NCBI RefSeq assembly: GCF_000026545.1
Contig: NC_011601.1
DNA length: 64,000 bases
Origin: Escherichia coli O127:H6 str. E2348/69
Lineage (GTDB): Bacteria > Pseudomonadota > Gammaproteobacteria > Enterobacterales > Enterobacteriaceae
Direction: 5' to 3' (one strand)
Shown: piece after piece, positions 2,609 through 10,853 of the stretch
Layout: the number at the start of each line of letters is the position of its first letter
Position numbering within the stretch: position 1 is the first letter of the stretch
Position numbers and translations under genes: made by a program
The notes under the pieces: model-generated
Databases searched by the model: none
Told to the model about the DNA's origin: nothing
Seen by the model: the letters and a program-made list of their open reading frames with translations, nothing else

Positions 2609-3790
2609 ATGACTAACAGCAATCGCATCAAGCTCACATGGATTAGCTTTCTTTCCTACGCACTGACCGGTGCGTTGGTTATTGTCACCGGGATGGTGAT
2701 GGGAAATATCGCCGATTATTTCAATCTGCCTGTTTCCAGCATGAGTAACACCTTCACCTTCCTCAATGCCGGCATTTTAATCTCTATCTTCCTCAACGCC
2801 TGGCTGATGGAAATCGTCCCGTTGAAAACGCAGTTACGTTTTGGCTTTCTCCTGATGGTGCTGGCGGTTGCCGGTTTGATGTTCAGCCACAGCCTGGCGC
2901 TGTTCTCGGCGGCGATGTTCATTCTCGGGGTGGTCAGCGGCATCACCATGTCGATTGGTACATTCCTGGTAACACAAATGTATGAAGGACGTCAGCGCGG
3001 TTCACGCCTGTTATTTACCGACTCCTTCTTCAGTATGGCCGGGATGATTTTCCCAATGATCGCCGCGTTTCTGCTGGCACGTAGCATTGAGTGGTACTGG
3101 GTTTATGCCTGCATCGGGCTGGTGTATGTTGCTATTTTTATTCTGACCTTCGGCTGTGAATTCCCGGCACTGGGCAAACATGCGCCAAAAACAGATGCTC
3201 CGGTAGAGAAAGAAAAGTGGGGGATCGGCGTACTGTTTCTCTCTGTTGCGGCGCTGTGCTACATCCTCGGTCAGTTAGGTTTTATCTCCTGGGTGCCAGA
3301 ATATGCCAAAGGTCTGGGTATGAGCCTGAATGACGCTGGCACGCTGGTAAGTAACTTCTGGATGTCGTACATGGTCGGCATGTGGGCGTTCAGCTTTATT
3401 CTTCGCTTCTTTGATTTGCAGCGCATTCTGACCGTACTGGCTGGTCTGGCTGCGATTCTGATGTACGTCTTTAACACCGGAACACCGGCACATATGGCGT
3501 GGTCAATTCTCGCCCTGGGCTTCTTCTCCAGCGCGATCTATACCACCATCATCACCCTGGGTTCACAGCAGACCAAAGTACCGTCGCCAAAACTGGTTAA
3601 CTTTGTCCTGACCTGCGGGACCATCGGTACTATGTTGACCTTTGTGGTTACCGGCCCGATTGTTGAACATAGTGGTCCGCAGGCGGCGCTGCTGACGGCA
3701 AACGGTCTGTACGCTGTCGTCTTTGTGATGTGCTTCCTGTTAGGTTTCGTCAGCCGTCACCGTCAGCATAACACCCTGACCTCTCATTAA
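2609..3790 (+). CDS. tsgA: MFS-family inner-membrane transporter TsgA, 393 aa
   Basis: ORF 2609..3790 (+), 393 aa, multi-pass hydrophobic protein; divergent from ppiA and upstream of nirB as in E. coli. Confidence 0.9.
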
Positions 3791-3950
3791 TTGTTCATGC
3801 CGGGCGGCACTATCGTCGTCCGGCCTTTTCCTCTCTTACTCTGCTACGTACATCTATTTATATAAATCCGTTCAATTTGTCTGTTTTTTGCACAAACATG
3901 AAATGTCAGACAATTCCGTGACTTAAGAAAATTTATACAAATCAGCAACA

Positions 3951-3966
3951 TACCCCTTAAGGAGTA
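3951..3966 (+). promoter_or_regulatory. NarL/NarP 7-2-7 heptamer pair in the nirB promoter (about -69.5)
   Basis: Sequence TACCCCTTAAGGAGTA is an inverted heptamer pair (TACCCCT / AGGAGTA); its centre lies 28 bp upstream of the centre of the FNR box, the spacing expected for the nirB promoter. Confidence 0.7.
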
Positions 3967-3979
3967 TATAAAGGTGAAT

Positions 3980-3993
3980 TTGATTTACATCAA
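3980..3993 (+). promoter_or_regulatory. FNR binding site (TTGAT-N4-ATCAA) of the nirB promoter, about -41.5
   Basis: Perfect TTGATttacATCAA at 3980-3993; a TAAGGT -10-like hexamer about 28 bp downstream; nirB ATG at 4052. Confidence 0.85.
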
Positions 3994-4051
3994 TAAGCGG
4001 GGTTGCTGAATCGTTAAGGTAGGCGGTAATAGAAAAGAAATCGAGGCAAAA

Positions 4052-6595
4052 ATGAGCAAAGTCAGACTCGCAATTATCGGTAACGGTATGGTCGGCCATC
4101 GCTTTATCGAAGATCTTCTTGATAAATCTGATGCGGCCAACTTTGATATTACCGTTTTCTGTGAAGAACCGCGCATCGCTTATGACCGCGTACACCTCTC
4201 GTCTTACTTCTCTCACCACACCGCCGAAGAGCTGTCGCTGGTGCGCGAAGGCTTCTACGAGAAACACGGCATCAAAGTTCTGGTCGGCGAACGCGCTATC
4301 ACCATCAACCGTCAGGAGAAGGTGATTCACTCCAGCGCCGGACGTACCGTTTTTTATGACAAGCTGATCATGGCGACCGGTTCCTACCCGTGGATCCCGC
4401 CAATTAAAGGTTCTGATACTCAGGACTGCTTTGTCTATCGCACCATTGAAGACCTCAACGCCATTGAATCCTGCGCTCGTCGCAGCAAGCGCGGTGCCGT
4501 TGTTGGTGGCGGCCTGTTAGGTCTGGAAGCTGCTGGCGCGCTGAAAAACTTAGGCATTGAAACCCACGTTATCGAATTTGCCCCTATGCTGATGGCGGAA
4601 CAGCTTGATCAGATGGGCGGCGAGCAGCTGCGTCGCAAAATCGAAAGTATGGGCGTGCGCGTTCACACCAGCAAAAACACTCTTGAGATTGTGCAGGAAG
4701 GTGTTGAAGCGCGTAAAACCATGCGTTTTGCCGACGGCAGCGAACTGGAAGTCGACTTTATCGTCTTCTCTACCGGTATCCGTCCGCGCGATAAGCTGGC
4801 AACCCAGTGTGGTCTGGACGTTGCTCCGCGTGGGGGTATCGTCATAAATGATTCCTGCCAGACTTCCGATCCGGATATCTACGCCATCGGTGAATGCGCA
4901 AGCTGGAACAACCGTGTATTTGGTCTGGTAGCACCAGGCTACAAAATGGCGCAGGTCGCCGTTGACCATATTCTTGGTAGCGAAAACGCCTTTGAAGGTG
5001 CAGACCTTAGCGCCAAGCTGAAACTGCTGGGCGTAGACGTAGGCGGTATTGGTGATGCGCACGGTCGCACGCCTGGCGCACGTAGCTACGTTTACCTCGA
5101 CGAAAGCAAAGAGATCTACAAACGCCTGATTGTCAGCGAAGACAACAAGACGCTGCTCGGTGCGGTACTGGTGGGCGATACCAGCGACTACGGCAACCTG
5201 CTGCAACTGGTGCTGAACGCTATCGAACTGCCGGAAAACCCGGATTCTCTGATTCTGCCAGCGCACTCGGGTAGCGGTAAGCCGTCTATCGGTGTTGATA
5301 AACTGCCGGACAGTGCGCAAATCTGCTCCTGCTTCGACGTCACCAAAGGCGATCTGATTGCTGCTATCAACAAAGGCTGCCACACCGTTGCGGCGCTGAA
5401 AGCCGAAACCAAAGCGGGTACTGGCTGCGGTGGCTGTATCCCGCTGGTCACTCAGGTACTGAACGCGGAACTGGCGAAACAGGGCATCGAAGTTAACAAC
5501 AACCTGTGCGAACACTTTGCTTATTCGCGTCAGGAACTGTTCCATTTGATCCGCGTTGAAGGCATTAAAACCTTCGAAGAACTGCTGGCGAAACACGGCA
5601 AAGGTTACGGTTGTGAAGTTTGTAAACCGACCGTCGGTTCGCTGCTGGCCTCCTGCTGGAACGAATACATTCTGAAGCCGGAACATACTCCGCTGCAGGA
5701 TTCTAACGACAACTTCCTCGCGAACATCCAGAAAGACGGCACCTACTCGGTGATCCCGCGTTCTCCGGGCGGTGAAATCACCCCGGAAGGGCTGATGGCA
5801 GTGGGTCGTATCGCGCGTGAATTTAATCTCTACACCAAAATCACCGGCTCTCAGCGCCTGGCGATGTTTGGCGCACAGAAAGACGATCTGCCAGAGATCT
5901 GGCGTCAACTGATTGAAGCCGGCTTCGAAACCGGTCATGCCTATGCGAAAGCACTGCGTATGGCGAAAACCTGCGTGGGTAGCACCTGGTGCCGCTATGG
6001 CGTTGGCGACAGCGTCGGCCTCGGCGTGGAACTGGAAAATCGCTACAAAGGCATCCGTACGCCGCACAAAATGAAGTTCGGTGTCTCCGGCTGTACCCGT
6101 GAATGTTCAGAAGCTCAGGGTAAAGACGTGGGTATTATCGCCACTGAAAAAGGCTGGAACCTGTATGTTTGCGGTAACGGCGGCATGAAACCGCGTCATG
6201 CGGATCTGCTGGCAGCGGATATCGATCGCGAAACGCTGATTAAATATCTTGACCGCTTCATGATGTTCTACATCCGTACTGCCGACAAACTGACGCGTAC
6301 CGCGCCGTGGTTAGAAAACCTCGAAGGTGGCATCGATTACCTGAAAGCGGTGATCATTGACGACAAACTGGGGCTGAACGCACATCTGGAAGAAGAGATG
6401 GCGCGCCTGCGTGAAGCGGTAGTATGTGAGTGGACTGAGACGGTCAATACACCGTCCGCGCAGACTCGCTTCAAACACTTCATCAACAGCGACAAGCGTG
6501 ACCCGAACGTGCAGATGGTGCCAGAGCGCGAACAGCACCGTCCGGCAACGCCGTATGAACGTATCCCGGTAACTCTGGTGGAGGACAACGCATGA
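4052..6595 (+). CDS. nirB: NADH-dependent nitrite reductase large subunit NirB, 847 aa
   Basis: ORF 4052..6595 (+), 847 aa; N-terminal FAD/NAD Rossmann motif (LAIIGNGMVGHRF), siroheme/Fe-S Cys clusters near the C-terminus; stop overlaps the nirD start. Confidence 0.96.
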   Translation: MSKVRLAIIGNGMVGHRFIEDLLDKSDAANFDITVFCEEPRIAYDRVHLSSYFSHHTAEELSLVREGFYEKHGIKVLVGERAITINRQEKVIHSSAGRTVFYDKLIMATGSYPWIPPIKGSDTQDCFVYRTIEDLNAIESCARRSKRGAVVGGGLLGLEAAGALKNLGIETHVIEFAPMLMAEQLDQMGGEQLRRKIESMGVRVHTSKNTLEIVQEGVEARKTMRFADGSELEVDFIVFSTGIRPRDKLATQCGLDVAPRGGIVINDSCQTSDPDIYAIGECASWNNRVFGLVAPGYKMAQVAVDHILGSENAFEGADLSAKLKLLGVDVGGIGDAHGRTPGARSYVYLDESKEIYKRLIVSEDNKTLLGAVLVGDTSDYGNLLQLVLNAIELPENPDSLILPAHSGSGKPSIGVDKLPDSAQICSCFDVTKGDLIAAINKGCHTVAALKAETKAGTGCGGCIPLVTQVLNAELAKQGIEVNNNLCEHFAYSRQELFHLIRVEGIKTFEELLAKHGKGYGCEVCKPTVGSLLASCWNEYILKPEHTPLQDSNDNFLANIQKDGTYSVIPRSPGGEITPEGLMAVGRIAREFNLYTKITGSQRLAMFGAQKDDLPEIWRQLIEAGFETGHAYAKALRMAKTCVGSTWCRYGVGDSVGLGVELENRYKGIRTPHKMKFGVSGCTRECSEAQGKDVGIIATEKGWNLYVCGNGGMKPRHADLLAADIDRETLIKYLDRFMMFYIRTADKLTRTAPWLENLEGGIDYLKAVIIDDKLGLNAHLEEEMARLREAVVCEWTETVNTPSAQTRFKHFINSDKRDPNVQMVPEREQHRPATPYERIPVTLVEDNA

Positions 6596-6918
6596 GCCAG
6601 TGGAAAGACATCTGCAAAATCGATGACATCCTGCCTGAAACCGGCGTCTGCGCGCTGTTAGGTGACGAACAAGTAGCAATTTTCCGCCCGTATCACAGCG
6701 ATCAGGTGTTTGCGATCAGCAACATCGACCCGTTCTTCGAGTCCAGCGTGCTGTCACGCGGGTTGATTGCGGAACACCAGGGCGAGCTGTGGGTCGCCAG
6801 CCCGCTGAAAAAGCAGCGTTTTCGCTTAAGCGACGGCTTGTGCATGGAAGACGAACAGTTTTCCGTCAAGCATTACGACGCGCGAGTGAAAGACGGCGTG
6901 GTACAGCTGCGCGGTTAA
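6592..6918 (+). CDS. nirD: Nitrite reductase small subunit NirD, 108 aa
   Basis: ORF 6592..6918 (+), 108 aa (MSQWKDICKIDDILPETGVCALLGDEQVAIFRP...); ATGA start/stop overlap with nirB. Confidence 0.95.
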   Translation: MSQWKDICKIDDILPETGVCALLGDEQVAIFRPYHSDQVFAISNIDPFFESSVLSRGLIAEHQGELWVASPLKKQRFRLSDGLCMEDEQFSVKHYDARVKDGVVQLRG

Positions 6919-6927
6919 TATTTTAAC

Positions 6928-6953
6928 GGGAGGCGCAATGCCTCCCCTTTTTG
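6928..6953 (+). terminator. Hairpin plus T-tract immediately after nirD (intra-operon terminator/attenuator)
   Basis: gggaggc-gcaat-gcctccc (7-bp GC-rich stem) followed by cttttt, 10 bp after the nirD stop. Confidence 0.6.
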
Positions 6954-7043
6954 CATGGTCCTGTAATAACCTTCGGCATATTGCAGGACATTTTTTAAAC
7001 TTTTTGTTTTATTTTTTGTTTTTATTTTTTAAAGGATAATCAA

Positions 7044-7850
7044 ATGTTTACAGACACTATTACTAAGTGTGCGGCTAACGCTGCGCGCATTGCACGCCTG
7101 TCGGCAAATAACCCGCTCGGCTTTTGGGTCAGCTCCGCGATGGCGGGCGCGTATGTGGGTCTTGGGATCATCCTGATTTTCACGCTCGGTAATTTGCTCG
7201 ACCCGTCCGTACGTCCTCTGGTGATGGGCGCGACCTTTGGTATCGCCTTAACGCTGGTCATTATTGCTGGTTCTGAATTGTTCACCGGACACACCATGTT
7301 CCTCACCTTTGGGGTGAAAGCGGGCACCATCAGCCACGGGCAAATGTGGGCAATCCTGCCGCAAACCTGGCTGGGTAACCTGGTCGGTTCCGTCTTCGTT
7401 GCCATGCTTTATAGCTGGGGCGGCGGTAGCCTGCTGCCGGTCGATACCAGCATCGTTCACTCCGTTGCGCTGGCTAAAACCACTGCACCGGCAATGGTAC
7501 TGTTCTTCAAAGGTGCATTGTGTAACTGGCTGGTTTGTCTGGCTATCTGGATGGCGCTGCGCACTGAAGGGGCGGCGAAATTTATCGCTATCTGGTGGTG
7601 TTTGCTGGCATTTATCGCGTCCGGCTACGAGCACTCCATCGCTAACATGACGCTGTTCGCACTCTCCTGGTTCGGCAACCACAGCGAAGCCTACACGCTG
7701 GCGGGCATTGGTCATAACCTGCTGTGGGTGACGCTGGGTAATACTTTATCGGGTGCCGTATTCATGGGATTGGGTTATTGGTATGCTACGCCGAAAGCGA
7801 ATCGTCCGGTTGCGGACAAATTTAATCAAACTGAAACGGCTGCCGGTTAA
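7044..7850 (+). CDS. nirC: Nitrite transporter NirC (formate/nitrite transporter family), 268 aa
   Basis: ORF 7044..7850 (+), 268 aa, FNT-family membrane protein (MFTDTITKCAANAARIARLSANNPLGFW...). Confidence 0.95.
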   Translation: MFTDTITKCAANAARIARLSANNPLGFWVSSAMAGAYVGLGIILIFTLGNLLDPSVRPLVMGATFGIALTLVIIAGSELFTGHTMFLTFGVKAGTISHGQMWAILPQTWLGNLVGSVFVAMLYSWGGGSLLPVDTSIVHSVALAKTTAPAMVLFFKGALCNWLVCLAIWMALRTEGAAKFIAIWWCLLAFIASGYEHSIANMTLFALSWFGNHSEAYTLAGIGHNLLWVTLGNTLSGAVFMGLGYWYATPKANRPVADKFNQTETAAG

Positions 7851-7868
7851 TTACTAAGGGGTTTTTAC

Positions 7869-9242
7869 GTGGATCATTTGCCTATATTTTGCCAATTACG
7901 CGATCGCGACTGTCTGATTGTCGGCGGTGGTGATGTCGCGGAACGCAAAGCAAGGTTGCTGTTAGACGCAGGCGCTCGCTTAACGGTGAATGCATTAGCG
8001 TTTATTCCACAGTTCACCGCATGGGCAGATGCAGGCATGTTAACCCTCGTCGAAGGGCCATTTGATGAAAGCCTTCTCGACACCTGCTGGCTGGCGATTG
8101 CAGCGACAGATGATGACGCGCTTAACCAGCGCGTCAGCGAAGCCGCTGAAGCTCGTCGCATCTTCTGTAACGTGGTCGATGCGCCGAAAGCCGCCAGCTT
8201 TATTATGCCGTCGATTATTGACCGCTCGCCGCTCATGGTAGCGGTCTCCTCTGGCGGCACCTCTCCGGTTCTGGCGCGCCTGTTGCGCGAAAAACTCGAA
8301 TCACTGCTGCCGTTACATCTGGGCCAGGTAGCGAAATACGCCGGGCAATTACGCGGGCGAGTGAAACAACAGTTCGCCACGATGGGTGAGCGTCGCCGTT
8401 TCTGGGAGAAATTATTCGTTAACGACCGCCTGGCGCAGTCGCTGGCCAACAACGATCAGAAAGCCATTACTGAAACCACCGAACAGTTAATCAACGAACC
8501 GCTCGACCATCGCGGTGAAGTGGTGCTGGTTGGTGCAGGTCCGGGCGATGCCGGGCTGCTGACACTGAAAGGTCTGCAACAAATTCAGCAGGCAGATGTG
8601 GTGGTCTACGACCGTCTGGTTTCTGACGATATTATGAATCTGGTACGCCGCGATGCTGATCGCGTTTTCGTCGGCAAACGCGCGGGATACCACTGCGTAC
8701 CGCAGGAAGAGATTAACCAGATCCTGCTGCGGGAAGCGCAAAAAGGTAAACGCGTGGTGCGTCTGAAAGGCGGCGATCCGTTTATTTTCGGGCGTGGCGG
8801 AGAAGAGCTGGAAACACTGTGCAACGCGGGTATTCCATTCTCGGTGGTTCCGGGTATTACCGCAGCTTCTGGTTGCTCTGCCTATTCGGGTATTCCGCTC
8901 ACGCATCGCGATTATGCCCAGAGCGTACGCTTAATTACTGGACACTTAAAAACCGGTGGCGAGCTGGACTGGGAAAACCTGGCGGCAGAAAAACAGACGC
9001 TGGTGTTTTATATGGGGCTGAATCAGGCTGCAACTATTCAGCAAAAGCTGATTGAATACGGTATGCCTGGTGAAATGCCGGTGGCAATTGTCGAAAACGG
9101 AACGGCAGTCACGCAGCGCGTGATTGACGGTACGCTCACGCAGCTGGGCGAACTGGCGCAGCAAATGAACAGTCCATCGCTAATTATTATTGGTCGGGTT
9201 GTTGGCCTGCGCGATAAATTGAACTGGTTCTCTAACCATTAA
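7869..9242 (+). CDS. cysG: Siroheme synthase CysG (uroporphyrinogen-III methyltransferase / precorrin-2 dehydrogenase / ferrochelatase), 457 aa, GTG start
   Basis: ORF 7869..9242 (+), 457 aa; N-terminal NAD-binding [18 protein letters not shown]-terminal methyltransferase domain ([18 protein letters not shown]). Confidence 0.95.
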
Positions 9243-9251
9243 TTTAACCAG

Positions 9252-9274
9252 GGCCAGAGAAGTCTGGCCTTTTT
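9252..9274 (+). terminator. Rho-independent terminator after cysG
   Basis: ggccaga-gaag-tctggcc hairpin followed by ttttt, 10 nt after the cysG stop. Confidence 0.75.
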
Positions 9275-9493
9275 CGTTTACAACTCTCTTTATATATTCA
9301 GCAGATAAAAACATAACCCCTTAATAAATATTGTCTGCTAATGGGTTATATTCACCGTTACAGCGACTTACAAAATTAAATCAATCGCTCACTGACGCTA
9401 ATTGAATATTCCTGTATCGTTCTTAATGAGCAGTCTGCTTATATTCATATAATCAATGAATATTAATTAATATATAATACATAGGGAATGTAA

Positions 9494-9661
9494 ATGAACA
9501 AATTTATTAAAGTTGCACTGGTAGGCGCAGTACTGGCTACGTTAACTGCATGTACTGGTCATATTGAAAACCGTGATAAGAACTGCTCTTACGACTACCT
9601 GCTGCACCCGGCAATTTCTATTTCTAAAATCATTGGCAGTTGCGGTCCGACTGCACAGTAA
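9494..9661 (+). CDS. yhfL: Small lipoprotein YhfL, 55 aa
   Basis: ATG at 9494; translation MNKFIKVALVGAVLATLTACTGHIENRDKNCSYDYLLHPAISISKIIGSCGPTAQ with a lipobox (LTAC); below the ORF-track size cutoff. Confidence 0.8.
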   Translation: MNKFIKVALVGAVLATLTACTGHIENRDKNCSYDYLLHPAISISKIIGSCGPTAQ

Positions 9662-9702
9662 GTCTCTGACAGAAATCGGCTAACGCCGGTTTAATTGCCT
9701 GA

Positions 9703-9740
9703 CGCCCTCGGAGTTATCCGAGGGCGTATTTATTTCTGCA
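9703..9740 (+). terminator. Rho-independent terminator after yhfL (at the yhfL/yhfS convergent junction)
   Basis: acgccctcgg-agttat-ccgagggcgt (10-bp stem) followed by atttatttct. Confidence 0.7.
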
Positions 9741-9767
9741 TTCTTTTCGAAAACATCATGCACAAGA

Positions 9768-10853
9768 TTAAATACTGGCAATACTCTCACGCAAAATCCG
9801 CAGCACCGTCTCTTCACCGCTGCGATTCGGGTTAATGCGAATCGCGCAATGTTCGAGTTGTGGATTCGCCTGACGAAACGTTCCGGAAAGTCGATAAAAG
9901 AGCGGCGGGATTTCATATTTCGACTCTGCACCAACCGGGTAAGGCAAGGCACCGAGTTTCTGCGCCTCTTCCAGCACTCTGGCGGCAATCGGCTGATGAA
10001 ACTCCACAATCAATACCTTCGACTGTGCATTGGCAATGACGGCGCTTTTCACTTCAGACACCGCGCCGCCGTTAAGCAAAGCCAGCAACCGTTCAGATAC
10101 TCCCGCCTGCACCGCATGCATCACCGGCGCAAACACCAGCCCACGCAAGACTTCCAGCGCCTGTGCACCCTGAATCTGGCTGCCGCCGGAATAGAGCGTG
10201 GCGCGAATCCGGCTAATAACATCGGCATCGCCTACCACCACACCAACGCCCTCTGGCCCAAACAGCTTGAAGCAGGAGAATGTCGACACATTCGCCCCGC
10301 ATTCGCAGCCGATTCGCGCTACCTTCATCACCGCATAGTTGTCATCGGTTAACGCTGGAACACCTGCCGCGCGCAACGTTGCCAGCACGTCTGCCAGCAC
10401 ATAGCGGTCCTGCGGCTGCTGGCGCGTATGCTGCACCAGCGCGGCATCAGGTTGTTGCTCGTCAACAACCTGCTTCAGTGCCGACAGATCATTGAAATCA
10501 GCCGTAATGAGCGTTAGCCCCATCTGCTCAATAATAACCCGTGTCGTCGGGTAAACAGGCGCGTCATGCACCAGAAGACGCTGCCCCGATTTGAGCAAAG
10601 CCGCCAGTGCCGCACGGATCGCGCCAGTACCCGCGCCCTGTACCAGCGCCGCGGCCTGTGCGTGAAACGCGTCAGCCAGCACCTGTTCCACACGCTGGGT
10701 AATGCGGGGCTGATTTAGCCCCGGCGTTAAGCCCAAATCACCGCAGGTAAGAAACTCGCAGCCAGGAAAATGACGGCAAATCGTGTCCACCAGCGCAAAC
10801 TGCTTTTGCTGCGCCTCAATAAGCGTCAGGCTTTGCAGAGGAAACGTCTTCAT
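9768..10853 (-). CDS. yhfS: YhfS, putative PLP-dependent enzyme of unknown function, 361 aa
   Basis: ORF 9768..10853 (-), 361 aa; recognised as E. coli YhfS by sequence and by synteny with yhfT..yhfZ; function not established. Confidence 0.85.
   Translation of the reverse strand: MKTFPLQSLTLIEAQQKQFALVDTICRHFPGCEFLTCGDLGLTPGLNQPRITQRVEQVLADAFHAQAAALVQGAGTGAIRAALAALLKSGQRLLVHDAPVYPTTRVIIEQMGLTLITADFNDLSALKQVVDEQQPDAALVQHTRQQPQDRYVLADVLATLRAAGVPALTDDNYAVMKVARIGCECGANVSTFSCFKLFGPEGVGVVVGDADVISRIRATLYSGGSQIQGAQALEVLRGLVFAPVMHAVQAGVSERLLALLNGGAVSEVKSAVIANAQSKVLIVEFHQPIAARVLEEAQKLGALPYPVGAESKYEIPPLFYRLSGTFRQANPQLEHCAIRINPNRSGEETVLRILRESIASI

Follow-up and report, generated by a model that had tools for sequence, protein, structure and literature searches.

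The sequence analyzed here (the window) is a 64-kb stretch of the Escherichia coli E2348/69 genome, to which it was 100% identical over the tested stretch. The nirBDC-cysG operon lies on its plus strand and comprises the open reading frames nirB (4052-6595), nirD (6592-6918), nirC (7044-7850), which encodes a nitrite transporter, and cysG (7869-9242). All four were assigned with NCBIfam equivalog models and scored far above the cut-off; nirD matched the NirD model NF007066 with 211.8 bits (cut-off 135), and nirC matched NF008595 with 573 bits. The nirD stop codon TAA (6916-6918, plus strand) is separated from nirC by a spacer of 125 nt (6919-7043, plus strand), which holds two hairpins, HP1 and HP2, and a T-rich tract. 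As a whole, this spacer folds with a z-score of -4.3, and none of 200 shuffled sequences folded as well.

The nirD-nirC locus was found in 5425 of 5426 complete E. coli genomes. A 156-nt query covering the spacer matched one place per genome (median 1) in these 5425 genomes; the E2348/69 spacer is thus not multi-copy, and its membership of the REP/BIME or ERIC families was rejected. In E. coli strain 1002W03 (locus L091, 1980-2595), the annotation lists nirC as a frameshifted pseudogene; the gene has lost ~190 nt internally, and its spacer measures 120 nt. A scan of positions 3500-10500 revealed no sigma-70-like promoter on either strand. The motif TATATT in the HP2 of K-12 was considered as a promoter by eye and rejected, as it has no -35 element at a usable spacing.

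Hairpins and the T-rich tract between nirD and nirC

HP1 (6928-6946, plus strand) starts 9 nt after the nirD stop codon. The terminator scan, folding, conservation and orthology to Salmonella point to HP1 as the GC-rich stem-loop of an intra-operonic intrinsic terminator. Its sequence, GGGAGGC-GCAAT-GCCTCCC followed by CTTTTTG, can form either a 7-bp stem with a 5-nt loop or, when a G-U pair is included, an 8-bp stem with a 3-nt loop. With 6 G-C pairs in the stem, it is a GC-rich stem-loop of the kind found in intrinsic terminators (~5-14 bp, short loop). The U-rich tract that such terminators carry directly 3′ of the stem is present after both hairpins, as C and T5 after HP1 and as A and T6 after HP2. 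The HP1 U-tract (6947-6952, plus strand) was read from the sequence, and a T-run follows HP1 in most genera; it is the likely site of partial termination and RNase E processing. The folding energy of HP1 is -14.7 kcal/mol (z -3.67), and none of 200 shuffled sequences was as stable. Within a 381-nt context its pair probabilities were 0.99-1.0, and it also formed in nascent-length folds ending at 6946 and 6952.

The terminator scan, which covered 7 kb, ranked HP1 third-best. It returned 16 matches against 9.2 ± 3.2 expected, and a lone terminator-like match is therefore not rare. We do not regard HP1 as a chance match, because it lies 9 nt after a stop codon and is conserved across genera with covariation. 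The d'Aubenton-Carafa-style score of HP1 was -5.9 or +22.6, depending on whether the first base of the tail is counted as part of the stem, and was comparable to the scores of -8 to +7 for the terminators at the operon ends (tsgA and cysG) in the same window; these scores were computed with modern energy parameters and have relative value only. The U-tract of HP1 is short in Escherichia (C and U5), and its scoring as a terminator is marginal.

HP2 (6958-6989, plus strand) was recognized as an inverted repeat and by folding. It has a stem of 11 bp that is AU-rich in its upper half and capped by a CUUCGG apex, and its arms, GTCCTGTAATA (6958-6968) and TATTGCAGGAC (6979-6989), are 91% complementary. 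Its energy is -15.2 kcal/mol (z -4.92), none of 200 shuffled sequences was as stable, and it is followed by ATTTTTT. The pair probabilities of HP1 and HP2 together ranged from 0.93 to 1.0 in the 381-nt context. Only 4 pairs of the 11-bp stem are G-C, and it is closed by a 10-nt apex. With a d'Aubenton-Carafa-style score of -26.9 or +9.7, HP2 makes a poor canonical terminator if the A at 6990 is left out of the stem, and by canonical criteria it is weaker than HP1.

Among the nirD-nirC spacers compared, HP2 was found in the genus Escherichia only, where it occurs with two types of apex: CUUCGG in the coli type, and an unrelated apex of ~16 nt in the albertii type. The lower stem, UCCUGYA/UGCAGGA, is common to both types and invariant in E. 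coli. In the albertii-type clade, the basal G-C pair is changed to A-U, a compensatory exchange. Across the genus, the flanking position has three states. The albertii-type allele was absent from the complete E. coli genomes (191-nt query, best identity 85%). Variation of HP2 within E. coli is mostly confined to the apex; the UUCG motif was altered in 2 of 11 sampled strains, so the tetraloop is not strictly required. The origin of HP2 as a derivative of a repeat element was rejected, as it is single-copy in each E. coli genome. Our literature search found no study of HP2 or of the repeat tract that follows it.

The T-rich tract (6990-7031, plus strand) was identified from its composition and tandem repeats as a degenerate microsatellite of T5R hexamers. 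Its 42 nt comprise 32 T, 7 A, 2 G and 1 C; no other 42-mer of the 64-kb window, on either strand, contains as many T (the runner-up has 26). Tandem repeat finder reported periods of 6 and 13. The length of the tract differs between E. coli strains, with runs of T6 to T8 and changes of 1-2 T in single runs. In E. coli A4, a possum isolate (locus L090, 1597-1656), it is longer by ~30 nt and contains about ten tandem TTTTTA units. It thus shows the behavior of a microsatellite. The tract provides the U-tail of HP2, is rich in RNase E consensus sites, and, lying ahead of the nirC ribosome-binding site, is a candidate binding platform for Hfq or S1. In 29 of 50 spacers, the sequence immediately before this site is likewise high in T, but this is not so where an ERIC-like insert abuts the site, and a T-tract is therefore not universally required in this position. 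A third hairpin, in which the U-tract pairs with the ribosome-binding site, was weak and no better than in shuffled sequences (z -1.15). Matches to the RNase E consensus RN|WUU number 7.2 per 100 nt of spacer, compared to 1.0 in nirBD, which fits the processing seen in Salmonella.

These features largely match a preliminary description of the spacer. The GC hairpin followed by T's that it placed at 6928-6953 was recovered as HP1 and its U-tract. The second inverted repeat, given as about 6957-6985, is present as HP2, but its noted end fell 4 nt short, and the stretch of roughly 50 nt of nearly pure T/A is the T-rich tract at its actual length of 42 nt.

Conservation of HP1 and its Salmonella counterpart

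For comparison, 80 loci encoding NirD were fetched, one genome per species, and nirC or cysG was then located downstream. In 50 loci nirD was followed by nirC, with spacers of 67 to 402 nt. The conserved part of these spacers is the sequence directly after the nirD stop codon, and their middle is hypervariable. The sequence GGGAGGCGCAAYGCCTCCC followed by a T-run was found in Escherichia, Salmonella, Citrobacter and Klebsiella, and variants such as CGGGGGYGCAATGCCCCCG occur in Leclercia, Silvania, Kosakonia, Phytobacter and Siccibacter. The sequence is unrelated in Atlantibacter, Buttiauxella and Tenebrionibacter, yet a GC hairpin with a T-run is present at the position of HP1. The gap between the stop codon and the hairpin is 5-10 nt across genera, and 42 of 51 spacers contain a terminator-like hairpin starting ≤25 nt from the stop codon, compared to 7% of shuffled spacers.

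An alignment of HP1 comprised 43 enterobacterial sequences from more than 15 genera. In this alignment, 90.2% of the cells form standard pairs (46-68% in slid controls), and 27 cells show changes on both sides of a pair, compared to 8.6 ± 2.2 in shuffled alignments; kinship of the compared genomes inflates these statistics, but their direction is clear. The clearest compensatory swaps were A-U to G-C (10 sequences) and G-C to C-G (7 sequences). At the other end of the spacer, GGATAATCA in the ribosome-binding region was kept in 32 of the 50 spacers and a relaxed form of this motif in 45.

Several spacers contain insertions that resemble repetitive elements, identified by eye from the consensus sequences. 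These are REP-like palindromes in Citrobacter and ERIC-like elements (CCCCAGGAGC...GTGACTGGGGTGAG) in Salmonella, some Citrobacter, Leclercia and Phytobacter (loci L008, L011, L012, L015, L017, L036, L057 and L064). The ~170-nt insertion in the narS gene of E. coli (K-12; locus L082, 338-521), also identified by eye, is a similar ERIC-like element in inverted orientation. The regulator and the target RNA have thus each acquired such a repeat, in different lineages.

In 31 loci nirC is absent and nirBD is directly followed by cysG. These belong to Enterobacter, Kluyvera, Lelliottia, Pseudocitrobacter, Trabulsiella and others (among them loci L025, L029-L035, L037, L039, L041 and L044-L045). A few of the nirC-less loci retain an HP1-like hairpin (L029, L048 and L068), and most have a different conserved long hairpin, AACAGCAGGAAAAA...TTCCTGCTGTT, upstream of cysG.

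An intra-operonic terminator located after nirD and composed of a stem-loop and a U-tract was described for the nirBDC-cysG operon of Salmonella by Wang, Chao, Matera, Gao and Vogel (NAR 2020, PMC7038943). Judged from its sequence, HP1 is the ortholog of this terminator. Both lie 8-9 nt past the nirD stop codon, share the stem GGGAGGCG...GCCTCCC and a tail of C and a U-run, and have similar energies (-14.7 for HP1 and -14.9 as reported for Salmonella). In the 43-sequence alignment, the stems of S. enterica subsp. arizonae and diarizonae are identical to that of HP1, with one loop base that differs. The nirC Shine-Dalgarno region with the pairing site of the small RNA NarS, AAAGGATAATCAAATG, is also the same in Salmonella and E. 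coli. The two spacers differ in that the U-run has 5 residues in Escherichia and 6 or more in Salmonella. Moreover, the Salmonella spacer is ~190-200 nt long, its U-tract and ribosome-binding site being separated by an ERIC-like insert, whereas the 125-nt spacer of E. coli contains HP2 and the T5R microsatellite instead.

The NarS site of E2348/69 (7031-7045, plus strand; AAAGGATAATCAAAT) covers the nirC Shine-Dalgarno region and start codon. It was assigned by complementarity and is the exact reverse complement (15/15) of the K-12 NarS seed ATTTGATTATCCTTT, which was taken from narS (b4813) in the RefSeq annotation of MG1655. The match was read directly from the sequence, since RNAduplex on full-length NarS gave an over-extended duplex. 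In Salmonella, the NarS footprint extends from -12 to +1 of nirC (PMC7038943).

The Salmonella operon has been studied experimentally (PMC7038943). Northern blots showed a full-length transcript of 5.4 kb and species of 2.8 kb (nirBD), 2.5 kb (nirC-cysG) and 1.4 kb (cysG). The last of these arises from a promoter of its own inside nirC, so the spacer mainly affects nirC. Deletion of the terminator and U-tract decreased the nirBD transcript and increased the nirC-cysG transcript; it also reduced the NarS repression of a nirDC-sfGFP fusion from ~30-fold to ~5-fold. The 5′ ends of the nirC-cysG species are processed (monophosphorylated) and lie in a uridine-rich region that starts at the nirD stop codon, and inactivation of RNase E abolishes this species. 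Termination and 3′-end protection were inseparable for Wang et al. themselves.

Probable partial termination and processing at the nirD-nirC junction

The spacer probably acts as a module that decouples nirBD from nirC-cysG at the RNA level within the operon. HP1 and its short U-tract would form a leaky intrinsic terminator, at which a fraction of the polymerases stop and yield nirBD mRNA. HP1 would also shield the 3′ end of nirBD fragments that are cut from read-through transcripts, and cleavage of these transcripts by RNase E in the U-rich stretches would release the nirC-cysG mRNA. The U-rich RNA, together with the site at 7031-7045, would then let the Hfq-dependent NarS control the translation and stability of nirC, with nirBD left untouched. 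Partial termination or 3′ protection of nirBD, release by RNase E and control by NarS were shown in Salmonella; for E. coli, we infer them by orthology, and the coverage drop in K-12 described below supports this.

The leakiness of HP1 may depend on translation. In the work of Li et al. (2016, PMC4824070), the terminating ribosome almost fully repressed a terminator located a few bp past the stop codon; repression affects terminators closer than ~10-15 nt to the stop codon, and maximum efficiency is reached beyond ~30 nt. From this distance effect and the 9-nt gap of HP1, we infer that nirD translation keeps HP1 leaky. A ribosome terminating on nirD would hinder the folding of HP1, which would make termination partial and dependent on the coupling between transcription and translation. 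HP2 and its U6 lie 39 nt past the stop codon, beyond the reach of this ribosome. In Escherichia, HP2 would most likely be a back-up terminator and/or a stabilizing hairpin.

In the preliminary description, the spacer was read as an internal attenuator that lowers nirC-cysG relative to nirBD. The lowering is supported by the Salmonella deletion and by the K-12 read counts, but switchable attenuation is not. No competing antiterminator structure was found in folds of the 381-nt context or in nascent-length folds (HP1 and HP2 probabilities of 0.93-1.0). A switchable attenuator with alternating terminator and antiterminator folds was therefore rejected, as no fold excludes HP1, which argues for a leaky terminator combined with a processing module. 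The spacer resembles the trp and pyrBI attenuators in that a terminator hairpin lies near a translated reading frame and the position of the ribosome can affect termination. It differs from them in having neither a leader peptide nor antiterminator pairing, and in its location between structural genes instead of in a 5′ leader. Another parallel, drawn by Wang et al. (PMC7038943), is the discoordinate control of the iscRSUA operon by RyhB, where the small RNA likewise targets an internal cistron while a hairpin between cistrons keeps the upstream fragment intact. The protective structure of iscRSUA is a REP element, whereas that of the nir operon is a terminator-like hairpin that also stops transcription.

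The same elements could also be explained without termination. All polymerases would then read through the spacer, RNase E would cut the U-rich stretches, HP1 would block 3′ exonucleases on nirBD, and HP2, as a 5′-proximal hairpin, would protect nirC-cysG. We consider a main role of the hairpins in RNA stability and processing possible, but rather doubtful. It is consistent with the monophosphorylated, RNase E-dependent 5′ ends of the Salmonella nirC-cysG species, with a 7-fold higher density of RN|WUU sites in the spacer compared to nirBD, and with the location of HP2 just downstream of the first U-tract. Against it, HP1 and its U-run have the canonical signature of a terminator, which was kept or re-invented in 42 of 51 spacers, and the Salmonella deletion raises nirC-cysG, as expected when a stop of transcription is removed. 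This explanation and that of a decoupling module are not mutually exclusive.

Published transcript counts for E. coli K-12 bear on both the decoupling module and a further explanation. In the DirectRNA-seq data of Adams et al. (2021, PMC7815308, Supplementary file 2), 586 reads were counted upstream and 24 downstream of position 3497031 (plus strand), and 920 and 149 reads, respectively, in the presence of bicyclomycin. Coverage across the nirD/nirC junction, proposed as a check in the preliminary description, thus drops 24-fold, of which 6-fold is Rho-independent and a further ~4-fold is Rho-dependent; the counts come from 800-nt windows, and differential decay, rather than termination, is a possible cause. 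Position 3497031 corresponds to ~7072 in the window, 28 nt into nirC, and was reported as a Rho termination region (Rho score 3.95, p 6e-12; PMC7815308). It adds a Rho component to the polarity of the junction, possibly linked to poor translation of nirC. If nirC were translated so poorly that Rho stopped most transcription early in this gene, the hairpins would be incidental. We consider this unlikely, as the 6-fold drop persists when Rho is inhibited, the spacer is C-poor (1 C in the 42-nt T-tract), unlike a rut site, and the conservation and covariation of HP1 would be left unexplained.

The curated Term-seq lists of Adams et al. for aerobically grown K-12 contain no 3′ end at HP1, HP2 or elsewhere in the spacer, and none for any gene from tsgA to cysG either; the locus is probably too weakly expressed under aerobic conditions for these lists to be informative. 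There is no nirD or nirC entry in the TERMITe supplements.

The region from HP1 to the U-tail of HP2 also resembles SroE, and 6919-6997 (HP1, HP2 and U6) might accumulate as a stable small RNA with a function of its own, analogous to SroE. In Rfam, positions 6918-6997 matched sroE (RF00371) over its full length with 24 bits (E 0.001-0.006), far below the gathering threshold of 51 bits, and the search of the spacer gave no other match. The spacer was therefore rejected as a member of the SroE family, and the resemblance is architectural only. SroE lies in the ispG-hisS spacer of E. coli (locus L092, 146-237), and the layout shared by the two consists of a TAA stop codon, a gap of ~9-10 nt, a first hairpin (GGGAAGCG...CGCUUCCC in SroE), a longer hairpin with a U-run (U5 in SroE) and the next ribosome-binding site. 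The first hairpins have the common pattern GGGA(A/G)GCG...C(U/C)UCCC, with GGGAAGCG in SroE corresponding to GGGAGGCG in the nir spacer. In SroE, however, the first hairpin has no U-tail, the locus is different, and a stable small RNA from the nir spacer is only putative. A hairpin with a U-tail is typical of Hfq or ProQ ligands, and this as well as the full-length Rfam match and the shared layout speaks for such an RNA. The low score, the restriction of HP2 to Escherichia, and the lack of a report of this RNA in the literature searched speak against it, as does the finding of Wang et al. that no Hfq-CLIP peak lies in this intergenic region, in data from aerobic growth (PMC7038943). Overall, we regard this small RNA as quite improbable.

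Adams et al. also reported an antisense Rho termination region at K-12 position 3496855 (minus strand; ~6896 in the window), in the 3′ end of nirD, with a Rho score of 3.56 and read counts that fall from 262 upstream to 12 downstream, and from 405 to 66 in the presence of bicyclomycin (PMC7815308). Some antisense transcript thus extends from inside nirC through the spacer to the vicinity of nirD, where it ends. These antisense reads, and the nature of the spacer as a hot spot of insertion (67 to 402 nt, with REP-like or ERIC-like elements in Citrobacter, Salmonella, Leclercia and Phytobacter), would fit a T-rich tract that functions as DNA, either by binding a nucleoid-associated protein or as a promoter or UP-like element, and drives nirC or the antisense transcript, with HP2 as a remnant of an inserted element; this is very improbable, given that the scan found no sigma-70-like promoter on either strand, the Salmonella nirC 5′ ends are processed and not primary, HP2 is single-copy in every E. 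coli genome and has a covarying stem, and the T-runs recur with a 6-nt period that is not in helical phase.

Role of the spacer in Escherichia and its relatives

The spacer feature is real and strongly conserved, and is functionally explained by the published work on its Salmonella ortholog. An internal signal that sets nirC-cysG below nirBD is already known from that operon, and the E. coli result confirms it: the Salmonella element also exists in E. coli, where it is conserved in all but one of the 5426 complete genomes, and the published K-12 read counts fit it. On the present analysis, the spacer is best described as a leaky terminator combined with a module for processing and response to a small RNA; RNase E processing, protection of the nirBD 3′ end and the need for the terminator and U-tract in NarS repression of nirC, all from the published work, go beyond the idea of a simple internal attenuator.

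In Escherichia, the ancestral spacer of HP1, U-tract and ribosome-binding site may have gained a second module composed of HP2 and the slippage-prone T5R repeat. A stable SroE-like small RNA of ~78 nt (6919-6997), with its end at the U-tail of HP2, might arise from this module, or the module might act as a tunable knob, although we consider this proposal speculative and unlikely to hold. If the module were such a knob, changes in repeat length, such as T6 to T8 or the 30-nt TTTTTA expansion of strain A4, would alter NirC output or the responsiveness to NarS and Hfq between strains.

For the operon as a whole, the spacer sets the level of the nirC cistron. It explains how a single promoter can provide a high level of the nitrite reductase NirBD and a low, separately controllable level of the nitrite importer NirC. 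In the view of Wang et al., the combination of high NirBD and low NirC protects the cytoplasm from nitrite during nitrate respiration (PMC7038943).
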